From Candidatus Atabeyarchaeum deiterrae (GTDB taxonomy: Archaea; Asgardarchaeota; Atabeyarchaeia; Atabeyarchaeales; Atabeyarchaeaceae): DNA of 64,000 nucleotides. The position numbers and the translations under genes were made by a program. The notes beneath the pieces are model-generated. The model was not told where the DNA came from. It saw nothing but the letters and a program-made list of their open reading frames with translations, and searched no databases. Location: the NCBI GenBank assembly GCA_037310415.1, contig CP147780.1:2240001-2304000 (forward strand), written 5' to 3'. Below are positions 34,054 to 36,765 of this stretch, piece after piece. Each line of letters starts with the position of its first letter. The first letter of the stretch is position 1.

Positions 34054-34566
34054 ATGGTCGCCTTCAAGGTGGCATCGAACGAGGATATCCGCGCACTAGG
34101 TAGAAAACTTCTCCATCTTTTGGAGGATCATGAGAGCCAAGTCTACCAAGAGAACATTGTCAAATTCGGTATCCCCGACGATTACGTCAAGAAGGTTTTC
34201 GCTGAGGACACCCTTATCGAGGCGGCAAAATCGGGAAAAGCGGTCTTCTACCTAGTGCTTAGGAAACGAGAAATCGTGGGATTCGCCCAGACTCTGCAGC
34301 ATGACCCAACCACAGCGGAATTGGATCGAATAATCATATTCCCCGAGCAGACTCGAAAGGGCATAGGAACGCTGCTCCTACGACACGCGGCAGAAGATCA
34401 GAAGCGAAGAGGAATAGAGACCATGGTAGTGAATGCAGGAAAAGAAGAGTCTCACGCCAGAAGATTCTACGAGAAAAACGGCTTTCAGAAAGAAAAGGAA
34501 ACCACAATACAGACACCGTGGGGCGGCAAAATAGACTTGGTAACTTACAAACTTGATATCAGATAA
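34054..34566 (+). CDS. GNAT family N-acetyltransferase
   Basis: IVGFA, PEQTRKGIGTLLL, ARRFYEKNGF. Confidence 0.9.
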   Translation: MVAFKVASNEDIRALGRKLLHLLEDHESQVYQENIVKFGIPDDYVKKVFAEDTLIEAAKSGKAVFYLVLRKREIVGFAQTLQHDPTTAELDRIIIFPEQTRKGIGTLLLRHAAEDQKRRGIETMVVNAGKEESHARRFYEKNGFQKEKETTIQTPWGGKIDLVTYKLDIR

Positions 34567-34590
34567 GGAAACCTCAAACTGGAAATCTTA

Positions 34591-34598
34591 TATATGAA
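34591..34598 (+). repeat. Target-site duplication, left copy (right copy 35891-35898)
   Basis: TATATGAA immediately outside both TIRs. Confidence 0.9.
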
Positions 34599-34620
34599 GG
34601 TTCTGTTACCTCTGCGGTTG
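34599..34620 (+). repeat. Left terminal inverted repeat (22 bp)
   Basis: GGTTCTGTTACCTCTGCGGTTG. Confidence 0.95.
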
Positions 34621-34625
34621 GTGAG

Positions 34626-34633
34626 TTTAAATA
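34626..34633 (+). promoter_or_regulatory. Putative TATA box of tnpB
   Basis: TTTAAATA 24-31 nt upstream of ATG 34657 (leaderless-type spacing). Confidence 0.5.
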
Positions 34634-34656
34634 AGAGTTTTAGTTTGTTTAGTTTT

Positions 34657-35883
34657 ATGCAGGCAGTTAAAACGGTGCAGATACCATACGAGCCTACAAA
34701 CGGTGTTCTCAGTCTCCTTGAAACTTTCAGGACCATGGTCAACTACTGCATCCGCGTCGGTCTCGAGAAGAATGTGACTTCCAGGCTCAGGCTGCAAAGC
34801 GAGACATATCACCAGCTAAGTGGCTTCGGTCTCCACACCTGGTACAGTCTCTCAGCCATCGAGGTTGCCACCGCCATCTTGAAGAACTACCGAAAAACGA
34901 AAAGAAAGCGAAAGATTGTTCGATTGCCGAGAGCCACGAAACTCACAGCTAAACTCGGAAACCAAGGCTACAAGATTGTTGATGGCAAACTGAGGATACC
35001 AATTAAGCCAAGAGAGTATTTCCACGTTCCCCTGCATAAGAGGGCGGCACGGTTCCTATCGGATGCCACGCTCAAGCTAGGCTCGGTGACCTTGACTGCT
35101 TGCACGGTTTCAGTGGTTTTCTCGAAGACCGCTGAGGTTACCGAACCCAAGAGCTACGTGGCGTACGACACGAATGAACGCTCAATAGATGGAGGATACG
35201 TGAAAGAAGGCGGAGAACTGATCGTTGAAAGCCACGATTTGTCAAATGTTTCAGAGATTAGGCACGGGTATTTTGAGCGGGTACGAAGAATTCAGAGAAA
35301 ATACGCGAAGGATAGGCGGGTGGCGAAAAAGATTCAGAGAAAATGGTTCACCAATCAGAACAACAAGGTCGACACAGTCCTGCATCAGGTGAGTTCAGCG
35401 ATAGTTGGACAAGCAAAAACCAGGGAACAAGGTATCATCCTCGAAGATCTTAAACATATTCGCAAGGCAGTTAACAGGAAAGCCTTAGGCGTCAACAACT
35501 TCAACGGGAAGATACAGAGAATCAGCACGCACACTAAGAAACTGAAGCGAAGGCTGAACTCATGGAGCTTCCACAAGCTGCAAGGCTTCATCGAGTATAA
35601 GGCTCTCTGGGAAGGAGTCAAAGTCATCAAAGCAAATCCGAGAAACACTTCTAGGGTCTGTGCGGTATGTGGGTGCGTGATGCGAGACCCGAAAGCGAGA
35701 ACCCTAGAATGCTGCGGGATAGATCGCCACGTAAACGCATGTTTGAACATGCTTAAAACCCAGGATGAAAGGGTGCGGTTCGCCCTGGATCGCTCCGCAC
35801 ATGTAGCCGTGATTAGTCCCTTCAACAAGGCTATGAGCCGAAGCGGAGAAGCTAACCCAAACGGTTATCAACCGCAGAGGTAA
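34657..35883 (+). CDS. tnpB: TnpB (IS200/IS605-type RNA-guided nuclease family, Cas12f-like)
   Basis: Ruv[20 protein letters not shown], Ruv[42 protein letters not shown] Zn ribbon, Ruv[13 protein letters not shown]; ORF-track start 34594 lies outside the element so ATG 34657 is preferred. Confidence 0.93.
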
Positions 35884-35910
35884 CAGAACCTATATGAATA
35901 CCTGCTAGAA
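35740..35910 (+). ncRNA. Putative omega/reRNA guide scaffold overlapping the tnpB 3' end
   Basis: Stems GTGCGG/CCGCAC (35773-35800) and TAGCC/GGCTA (35804-35833) lie in the non-conserved C-terminal tail between RuvC-III and the right end, where TnpB guide RNAs are normally encoded; boundaries approximate. Confidence 0.5.
35869..35890 (-). repeat. Right terminal inverted repeat (22 bp), contains the tnpB stop codon
   Basis: CAACCGCAGAGGTAACAGAACC; TAA at 35881-35883. Confidence 0.95.
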
Positions 35911-35928
35911 ACCGAGCTGTGATTGATT

Positions 35929-36765
35929 ATGAAATTGAGTTGTTGCACGTTAGCGTATATTGTTAGTACGCCACTGGATGAAGCGATTAGAAGAATCGCT
36001 GAAGCTGGCTACAAAGGGGTAGACTTGTATACTGGTCCTCCACACCTTTACCCTGGGCATTATTCGTCTGACGAACGAGAAGTTGTGAGGAAGGTAGTTG
36101 ATGAAAACGGTCTTGAACTGACGGGCTTCGCAGTCGCCGGTGGAATTCTCAATCTGGGACTCAACTTTTCCCACCCTAACAAGAAAGTGAGAGACGAAAC
36201 GCTGCAATACTACAAAGACAACGTCAACCTTGCGGAAGAAATCGGTTGCCCCCTAATCAACGTCCTAACAGGTCATTGCCTGTATGGAACCTCAAGGGAA
36301 CAAGGCAGAAAATGGACCATGGACGCATTCCATGAGCTTACGGCGCTGGCGGAGGAAAAAGACGTGATTCTCGGTCTACATCCGCAGTACATCGGGGACA
36401 GCCCGCTCATGCTTACCGTTGATGATGCGCTCGACATGATCAAAGAGTTAAACTCGAAAGTCGTTAAAGTGATCTTCGATACTGCGCAGCAGAACATTAC
36501 CTACCCAAACTTTGCCGACGACATTAGGAAGGCAGGACAGAACCTCTGCTATGTTCACGCAGCCGATAACGATGGAATAAGCTGGACCCATCTCACCCTT
36601 GGAAAGGGGACGGTGAACTGGGAAGGACTAGTTAAGACACTCAATGCAATAGACTTCGATGGTTACATCTGTGTGCAGACTTGGTCGGGTTCACCTATCG
36701 ATGCTGACTCCGTGATACGCGAATCCAAGGAGTATATGGAAGGCATCTTCAAGAAAGTACGATAG
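35929..36765 (+). CDS. Sugar phosphate isomerase/epimerase (xylose-isomerase-like TIM barrel)
   Basis: AGYKGVD, VIFDTAQ, YVHAADN, H..LGKG.VNW, FDGYI; some metal-ligand Glu positions replaced (HP, QT). Confidence 0.85.
   Translation: MKLSCCTLAYIVSTPLDEAIRRIAEAGYKGVDLYTGPPHLYPGHYSSDEREVVRKVVDENGLELTGFAVAGGILNLGLNFSHPNKKVRDETLQYYKDNVNLAEEIGCPLINVLTGHCLYGTSREQGRKWTMDAFHELTALAEEKDVILGLHPQYIGDSPLMLTVDDALDMIKELNSKVVKVIFDTAQQNITYPNFADDIRKAGQNLCYVHAADNDGISWTHLTLGKGTVNWEGLVKTLNAIDFDGYICVQTWSGSPIDADSVIRESKEYMEGIFKKVR

Follow-up and report, generated by a model that had tools for sequence, protein, structure and literature searches.

Introduction

TnpB, the ancestor of Cas12, is seen as a factor that helps transposons with scarless excision, namely those of the IS605 and IS607 types, in homing. 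What it does for DDE transposons was raised as a question in a 2026 review of OMEGA systems (PMC13565253). Six DDE-associated TnpB branches with inverted terminal repeats (DDE-1 to DDE-6) have been described, and solo TnpBs with the same ends were taken as elements moved in trans (Altae-Tran et al., 2023, PMC10691335); the partners of these branches are ISL2, IS630 and IS1031 (PMC13565253). Here, we describe a tnpB-bearing unit at positions 34599-35890 of a 64,000-nucleotide stretch of the Asgard archaeon Candidatus Atabeyarchaeum deiterrae (hereafter the window; C1:2240001-2304000 of the single-contig, 2.76-Mb genome G000), which very probably represents a non-autonomous transposon with the ends of an archaeal IS6-like DDE element, tnpB and a guide-RNA scaffold having taken the place of the transposase.

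The IS6 family, the second point of comparison, has 8-bp duplications, ends of the form GG...cTGTt, repeats of 15-20 bp and the Zn-finger clades h and i (ISCpe7 type), and its family-wide inventory records two miniature inverted-repeat transposable elements (MITEs) and a single passenger gene, TnpB being absent from it (Varani et al., 2021, PMC7986276). The IS6 membership of its long and archaeal groups has been doubted, and a lack of experimental data for these groups was noted (Harmer and Hall, 2019, PMC6807381).

Results

A tnpB gene between the ends of a DDE transposon

The unit, 1292 bp in size, is bounded by perfect 22-bp terminal inverted repeats (TIRs), the left of which, GGTTCTGTTACCTCTGCGGTTG, lies on the plus strand at 34599..34620, and the right, its exact reverse complement, on the minus strand at 35869..35890. 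An exact duplication of 8 bp, TATATGAA, stands outside both repeats (34591..34598 and 35891..35898), such that the whole arrangement across 34591-35898 reads TATATGAA, GGTTCTGTTACCTCTGCGGTTG ... CAACCGCAGAGGTAACAGAACC, TATATGAA. The 22-mer is found at two sites only in the window (0.00 expected in 100 shuffles), and the repeats match at 23/24 positions when two more bases are taken in. An earlier note on this DNA, made from the letters alone, had described such repeats and such a duplication around a unit with tnpB as its sole content, and the sequence confirms this.

The sole long open reading frame (ORF) of the unit is tnpB, on the plus strand at 34657..35883, identified by profile matches and coding for a protein of 408 aa (P0001). 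As listed, the ORF begins with ATG 34594, which falls within the octamer of the duplication; ATG 34657 is the more likely start, and the TATA-box-like TTTAAATA 24 nt before it (34626..34633, plus strand) is a likely internal promoter. The stop codon, TAA at 35881-35883, sits within the right TIR. Across nine copies, conservation is higher at the first two codon positions than at the third, which indicates purifying selection on the gene.

The ends of this unit are those of DDE transposons. The right TIR matches the left end of a metagenomic DDE element (L151) at 24/24 positions, and the left TIR equals the first 22 nt at both ends of a DDE-bearing element of 4.4 kb in a related genome (G001). 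The GG tips and cTGTt of IS6-type repeats are present at both ends (GGTTCTGTT...) of the window unit and the DDE elements alike, and the 8-bp duplication of the IS6/IS26 family accompanies the window unit and the DDE elements of G000, G001, a Nitrososphaerales metagenome-assembled genome (MAG; G105) and 40 metagenomic DDE elements.

A genuine insertion with an empty counterpart

Both junctions of the unit are bridged by contigs from an independent study (X2), and contigs of other copies from the same metagenomes leave the window sequence at 34598-34604 and 35891-35892, the edges of the TIRs; hence, the boundaries of the unit are biological and no assembly artefact. The sister genome G002 has an empty intergenic site, ...GAAATCTTA-TATATGGA-TACTTGCTAG..., with homology on both sides and one octamer, not the two that the earlier note held to be incompatible with its reading. 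At the syntenic site of G001 the element is likewise absent. No empty allele was seen in the public-run samples, where zero contigs joined across the element, and a single public RNA run yielded two short contigs only, the first derived from a different copy and the second from the gene downstream. The insertion is thus a true one, but 'recent', as the same note called it, holds only in relative terms, the site being empty in another genus and the nearest copy being 86% identical. Its remark that the find would gain interest in an Asgard host is to the point, as the host belongs to that group, with Atabeyarchaeia-1 as its sister genome.

An archaeal family of tnpB elements with inverted repeats

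The window unit belongs to a diversified family. A second tnpB of G000 codes for a protein 38% identical to that of the window, between TIRs that match at 20/22 positions and with a duplication of its own, TGAGAAAC. In G001 there are about nine full or near-full copies of the window type, 80-86% identical in DNA, and at least four tnpB copies have the same kind of ends and differing 8-bp duplications. In an anchored survey of 85 tnpB loci, 26 independent tnpB-only insertions show TIRs matching at 16/24 positions or more and a duplication of at least 7/8; they come from Asgard archaea, Bathyarchaeia, Thermoproteota and Nitrososphaeria. This count is conservative in that several further loci, with Thermoplasmata and a Methanobacteriota MAG among their sources, carry GGTTCTG on either side together with duplications offset by one base. 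The family thus ranges over Asgard archaea, Bathyarchaeia and Nitrososphaeria, and probably Thermoplasmata. Further copies with like ends and different duplications, which the earlier note had proposed to look for, therefore exist in both genomes and well beyond them. In its description of a non-autonomous element that had 'captured' a TnpB, the tnpB-only content and the IS6-like ends stand, but 'captured' is too weak a word for a partnership this old and diversified.

At four loci from Bathyarchaeia, Thermoplasmata and Nitrososphaera (L082, L095, L097, L121), the flanking repeats are 9 bp long or lie one base off the anchor GGTTCTG, which means that some lineages have a 9-bp duplication or that the element really ends one base further out. 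A count of GGTTCTGTTA across G000 gave 5+2 occurrences against about 2.6 expected per strand, with no MITEs and no more copies with exact ends in that genome. G000 also encodes one Y1 (IS200-type) transposase, at C1:1377345-1377641, and three distant tnpB relatives of 24-32% identity at about 408.5, 1459 and 1486 kb, which presumably are classical IS200/IS605-type elements, separate from the TIR-bearing family.

A probable IS6-like DDE partner that never shares an element with tnpB

G000 has one gene with the IS240/IS6-type DDE domain PF13610, which is intact and codes for 394 aa (C1:1518285-1519469), with a SWIM domain in the N-terminal part and a Zn ribbon. The locus with 1.5-kb flanks showed no TIRs; on a wider look the ends were found further out, delimiting an element of 6159 bp (C1:1515170-1521328; L048 671-6829) with GGTTCTGT... 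TIRs that match at 19/22 positions and a perfect duplication, TGGATTTC. Inside it, at 1520831-1520845, lies a leftover window-type end, CAACCGCAGAGGTAA, which suggests that one element was nested in or fused to another. The cargo of this element comprises a 446-aa ParB_N-like protein, a NOV_C-domain protein and several ORFs of unknown kind.

The DDE proteins of G001 and G000 are 80% identical. A 6.5-kb element of G001 carries a full-length DDE gene and the duplication TGGAGAAC; in the 4.4-kb element (L040 1150-5568, G001:C1:614149-618567), which has inverted repeats of 65 nt at 83% identity, the DDE protein is truncated at its N-terminus to 251 aa. The latter also carries genes for a winged-helix regulator, a DUF5678 protein and an aspartyl-protease-like ORF, and is probably a non-autonomous cargo carrier. 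The DDE element of G105 measures 4.26 kb, with a perfect 23/23 TIR, GGTTCTGGTAAGTTCGC..., and the duplication ACTCAAAC. Its TIR follows the version of the local tnpB element (GGTTCTGGTAACTTCGC...; GGTTCTGGTAA.TTCGC) and differs from the Asgard form; hence, the ends of tnpB and DDE elements co-vary by lineage.

A metagenome scan with the DDE alignment, in which the DDE triad is invariant, returned 80 loci, among them 40 independent elements of 2.2-13.5 kb with the same ends, 8-bp duplications and variable cargo ORFs. No tnpB was found at any of the 80 DDE loci with 8-kb flanks (E <= 0.01), and no DDE gene at any of the 85 tnpB loci. Since the two kinds of genes have their ends in common but never occupy one element together, we infer mobilisation in trans, and the window unit would accordingly be moved by an IS6-like DDE enzyme encoded elsewhere. 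The DDE gene is present in 5 of the 400 Asgard genomes searched; PF13610 was not found in G018 and G047, both of which have distant tnpB relatives. Seven loci (L146, L172, L177, L182, L186, L202, L203) show a second element end (GGTTCTG/CAGAACC) directly after the 8-bp duplication. Such adjoining ends indicate that two elements took the same 8-bp target in tandem, with one octamer between them, which fits a strongly site-directed insertion.

The autonomous IS6-like DDE elements with the same ends and 8-bp duplications that the earlier note had anticipated are therefore at hand, one in G000, two in G001, one in G105 and 40 in metagenomes. Its assignment of the unit to the IS6/IS26 type is sustained by the ends and the duplication, but not to the letter, as the transposase is a long SWIM/Zn-ribbon form and no classical 800-bp IS6 is involved. 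PF13610 scores 61.9-63.7 bits on the partner DDE proteins against a cut-off of 27, and the NCBIfam IS6 equivalog NF033587 116-118.3 bits, just under its cut-off of 125, with the whole profile covered. The compact one-gene layout of about 0.8 kb is absent, the DDE elements being 2.2-13.5 kb long and the window unit being without a transposase.

A covarying, predicted guide-RNA scaffold that closes on the right inverted repeat

An Rfam scan of 34400-36100 matched no family at E <= 1. A consensus fold, derived from the terminal 150 nt in 14 canonical-clade (DRD) elements, has 22 pairs, 12 of them with compensatory changes. In this seed alignment, 94% of the cells are paired against 77% after shuffling, and the covariation score is 0.46, compared with 0.16 for the shuffles, neither figure being attained in any of 500 shuffles; slid registers pair at 27-47%. 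The covariance model R1, from whose build the window-clade sequences were left out, matches the window on the plus strand at 35735..35890 (58.5 bits, E about 2e-13). The match to this omega-RNA-like scaffold is of full length and extends from within the 3' part of tnpB to the final base of the element. R1 matches tnpB elements of every lineage and zero DDE-only elements. In the 29 non-seed matches, whose alignment (A4) was fitted to the model, 91% of the cells are paired against 75.5% when shuffled, again with 0/500 shuffles reaching the value and slid registers at 27-45%, and 14 pairs are changed on both sides.

In the window, GGTTC at 35777-81 pairs with the terminal GAACC at 35886-90, and 35794-98 with 35843-47; further helices join 35807/09/10 with 35840/38/37 and 35851-56 with 35879-84. 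Hence, the right TIR, with the terminal GAACC, is part of the guide-RNA scaffold. As the scaffold ends at 35890, the guide has to start with 35891, where the octamer begins, and the predicted guide segment, TATATGAATACCTGCTAGAA (35891..35910, plus strand), comprises the octamer and its flank, its length being assumed by analogy with other TnpBs. The window element is predicted to express such an RNA. Two simpler indicators point the same way: a test for an 8-bp terminal hairpin gave 6.24 pairs, compared with 5.60 for the left end and 5.38 for shuffles, a modest support superseded by the consensus fold, and third-codon conservation in the last 92 nt, at 0.80 against about 0.68, is a weak hint.

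Promoter-proximal targets and an orientation lock

Read in the orientation of tnpB, the sequence 5' of the left octamer has T at position -3 in 24/26 insertions and at -2 in 20/26, whereas the mirror positions of the right flank have it in 7/26 and 12/26. These bases belong to a target motif, TTATAA-N3-TTG, beside the duplication, which DDE-only elements share on one side or the other but never on both. The opposite strand of the motif corresponds to a B recognition element (BRE) followed by a TATA box, and in 23/37 cases a host gene directed away from the element begins at a distance of 28-120 nt, with a cluster at 34-41 nt. This spacing fits leaderless transcripts, and the transposition system therefore inserts just upstream of host promoters.

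The tnpB elements differ from the DDE-only elements in their orientation relative to this motif. Where TT is present on one side only, it stands to the left in 15 and to the right in 0 of the tnpB elements, against 9 left and 13 right among the DDE-only elements (Fisher p = 2e-4). Two almost identical DDE elements, L197 and L209, are inserted in opposite directions, and an orientation imposed by the transposase was rejected on this ground. Capture of a host TATA box for driving tnpB was likewise rejected: the promoter in the motif points away from the element and tnpB has a TATA box of its own. The lock of tnpB orientation places YTTN directly 5' of the guide-read sequence in the empty site, a layout like that of a transposon-adjacent motif (TAM). 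In the window this position is CTTA (34587..34590, plus strand), which abuts the left octamer on its 5' side and is part of the one-sided target motif; a TAM of the form YTTN would be the best explanation of the orientation lock.

A histidine at the third RuvC position

The window TnpB is matched by PF07282 with 54.9 bits (cut-off 26.3), by TIGR01766 with 61.5 (cut-off 32) and by NF040570 (guided_TnpB) with 86.8, under the cut-off of 100; profile A1 of the family matches solved TnpB/Cas12f chains down to 4e-18. RuvC-I D171 and RuvC-II E263 are present and invariant, and so are present the zinc-finger cysteines 335/338/352/353. The RuvC triad of Asp, Glu and Asp is nevertheless incomplete: the third position is His358 (CAC, 35728..35730, plus strand), giving DRH where DRD/NAD is expected. 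In the profile alignment, the d-r-h of the family stands opposite the N-A-D of the solved chains, such that His358 takes the place of the catalytic RuvC-III Asp. No protein of the window clade has D at this position, which is occupied by H in 49 of them and by Q in 9; the second G000 copy belongs to a clade with the canonical DRD. Conserved Asp-to-His branches of TnpB have been described and suggested to be still active (Altae-Tran et al., 2023, PMC10691335).

Genes beside the insertion site

To the left of the element lies a GNAT acetyltransferase gene (34054-34566) with no counterpart at the syntenic site in G001 and G002; it therefore represents a lineage-specific gain or loss beside the insertion site. 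The homology to G002 picks up again just about 18 nt before the octamer. To the right, a gene for a xylose-isomerase-like TIM-barrel protein (35923-36765) starts about 30 nt past the right octamer. The octamer TATATGAA with the preceding CTTA is probably the former TATA box of this gene, in which case the insertion would then have cut it off from its upstream promoter context.

Discussion

Proposed mechanism

With high confidence, we propose that the window unit is a non-autonomous transposon with the ends of an archaeal IS6-like DDE element, which carries tnpB and its scaffold in the place of the transposase, is probably moved in trans, and would have a guide starting at 35891, a YTTN TAM and a homing function. 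A transposase of about 390 aa, with SWIM, Zn-ribbon and helix-turn-helix parts and a DDE core of the IS6/IS240 type, would bind the GGTTCTGT... inverted repeats and make staggered cuts 8 bp apart, leaving the duplication TATATGAA, with a preference for sites immediately upstream of host BRE/TATA promoters. The right TIR would serve twice, as DNA in its capacity of transposase site and as RNA in closing the guide-RNA scaffold. The guide from 35891 would read the duplicated octamer and the right flank; in an unoccupied allele, the same sequence is preceded by YTTN (CTTA), the proposed TAM. Recognition of such an empty site by TnpB and its RNA would help the element to be copied there, and the window element is predicted to home in this manner.

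Several observations weigh against this proposal. The matches of the covariance model are carried in part by conserved coding sequence and by the TIR. YTTN belongs to a target motif that DDE-only elements share; hence, it is not specific to TnpB, and the orientation lock alone points to a TAM. When the TIR of the element is compared with the outer TIRs of the DDE element that G000 itself encodes, 5/22 positions differ, which makes cross-recognition in G000 less than certain. This genome has no second copy of the window type, the nearest relative being 86% identical, and nothing in it points to recent activity. IS6/IS26 elements are considered to transpose through cointegrates, without excision (PMC7986276), and the classical role of TnpB in restoring an element after excision would not apply to them. 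Lastly, homing needs a cut, and His358 in the place of the catalytic Asp may abolish or alter cleavage, which lowers confidence in cutting-based homing for the window copy in particular.

The last point leads to an explanation that we consider unlikely, though worth weighing: the anatomy and the mobilisation in trans would be the same, but the TnpB of the window clade would be no nuclease, acting through its His/Gln RuvC-III as an RNA-guided DNA binder that could possibly block re-insertion, repress the neighbouring promoter or mark the empty site for the transposase. The residue opposite the catalytic Asp of the solved Cas12f/TnpB structures, its fixation as H or Q throughout the clade, the adjacency of the elements to promoters and the precedent of nuclease-dead TnpB regulators (PMC10691335; PMC13565253) all lend it some appeal. 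It sits less well with the invariance of the RuvC-I Asp and RuvC-II Glu, with a sister clade that keeps DRD on the same kind of element under the same orientation lock, and with a gene that is still mobile and multi-copy, unlike known domesticated regulators; moreover, conserved Asp-to-His branches have been taken as probably still active (PMC10691335). We also doubt that YTTN and the fixed orientation are unrelated to a TAM, in which case the transposase would target BRE/TATA and only those tnpB elements would survive that read away from the host promoter, as the other orientation would disturb host or element transcription. That the motif is common to DDE-only elements, and that its other strand reads BRE+TATA with host gene starts at leaderless-transcript spacing, is what such an account would lead one to expect; but the DDE-only elements also carry genes and yet lie in both orientations (9:13), including the near-identical L197/L209 pair. 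The most conserved bases are furthermore the TT abutting the predicted target (24/26 and 20/26), above the TATA part (13-17/26), and T-rich motifs directly 5' of the target are usual for TnpB and Cas12 (PMC13565253).

An ordinary IS200/IS605 (IS1341-group) tnpB element moved by a Y1 TnpA, with incidental TIRs and octamer, is by comparison wholly improbable. The NCBI-style names of relatives ('IS200/IS605 family accessory protein TnpB-related') and the single Y1 transposase of G000 would accord with it, but that Y1 gene lies 0.9 Mb away, and the IS200/IS605 family has neither TIRs nor duplications (PMC13565253), both of which recur here in 26 independent insertions. The empty site with one octamer, the survey of TIRs and duplications and the ends shared with DDE elements together refute this identity.

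Returning to the trans-mobilised, RNA-guided transposon, we tentatively extend the proposal to the family as a whole. The tnpB-only elements may be parasites of a promoter-targeting IS6-like transposon, their RNA scaffold fused with the right end and their TAM tuned to the BRE-side YTTN of the transposase target, and might home in polyploid archaea without excision. If so, this would be the third independent case of co-evolution between TAM and transposase target, after IS605 and IS607, and the first for a DDE enzyme acting solely in trans; the window clade would then use a His-containing RuvC site in TAM-tuned homing. For the question of what TnpB does in DDE transposition, the family is a clean test case provided by nature: it is abundant and old, tnpB and transposase are always separate, one end serves both the transposase and the predicted RNA, the target motif is known, the lock is limited to TnpB-bearing elements, and elements of one kind carry both canonical DRD and His/Gln variants. 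It also documents mobile elements of active look in complete Asgard genomes, and extends the list of candidate genome-editing tools by a compact archaeal TnpB whose scaffold boundary is defined.

Comparison with known systems

The pairing of DDE transposases with TnpB is already known: the view of the earlier note that TnpB normally stays apart from prokaryotic DDE/TIR elements was out of date, given the six branches published in 2023 (PMC10691335). A full-text search for TnpB with IS6 as a whole word gave resistance-plasmid papers only, and in the literature searched, in which the 2023 study was covered by its main text, we found no description of an IS6-type TnpB partner, a repeat-in-scaffold layout or an orientation lock; these appear to be new here. 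Like the DDE-branch TnpBs, the family has tnpB between inverted repeats with its 3' end near the transposon end, and solo copies that share the ends of transposase elements. Although it could be identical with one of DDE-1 to DDE-5, it is set apart from branches DDE-1 to DDE-6, as their main-text description has them, by an IS6-like partner (PF13610, GGTTCTGT ends, 8-bp duplication) that is unnamed in the main texts of PMC10691335 and PMC13565253, by tnpB and DDE genes that never occur in one element (0/80 and 0/85 loci), by a stop codon and RNA scaffold that reach into the TIR, and by promoter-proximal targeting with an orientation lock.

With clades h/i of IS6/IS26, the partner elements share the GG tips, the cTGTt, the 8-bp duplication, the IS240-type DDE core and an N-terminal zinc-finger extension. 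They differ in being 2.2-13.5 kb long with cargo, against about 0.8 kb with one gene, and in a transposase with an added SWIM domain that reaches 118.3 against the IS6 cut-off of 125.

The classical OMEGA systems of IS200/IS605 and IS607 (ISDra2, IS608) are paralleled by the typical size of the TnpB, its RuvC-II Glu in place and its zinc finger, as well as by features predicted here, namely an RNA running over the 3' end of tnpB to the transposon boundary, a flank-derived guide and a candidate TAM that equals the transposase target motif. In contrast to their hairpin ends and scarless insertion, the elements described here have TIRs and an 8-bp duplication, a predicted guide that starts with the duplicated target bases, a DDE enzyme that is never in cis and, in the window clade, a RuvC-III His.

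A eukaryotic echo of this arrangement is found in Fanzor, likewise a TnpB-type passenger of duplication-making DDE/TIR transposons in which the 5' duplication or flank is read as part of the TAM (PMC13565253). However, the element from the window is prokaryotic, and its RuvC-II Glu is in the canonical position, whereas that of Fanzor is displaced.

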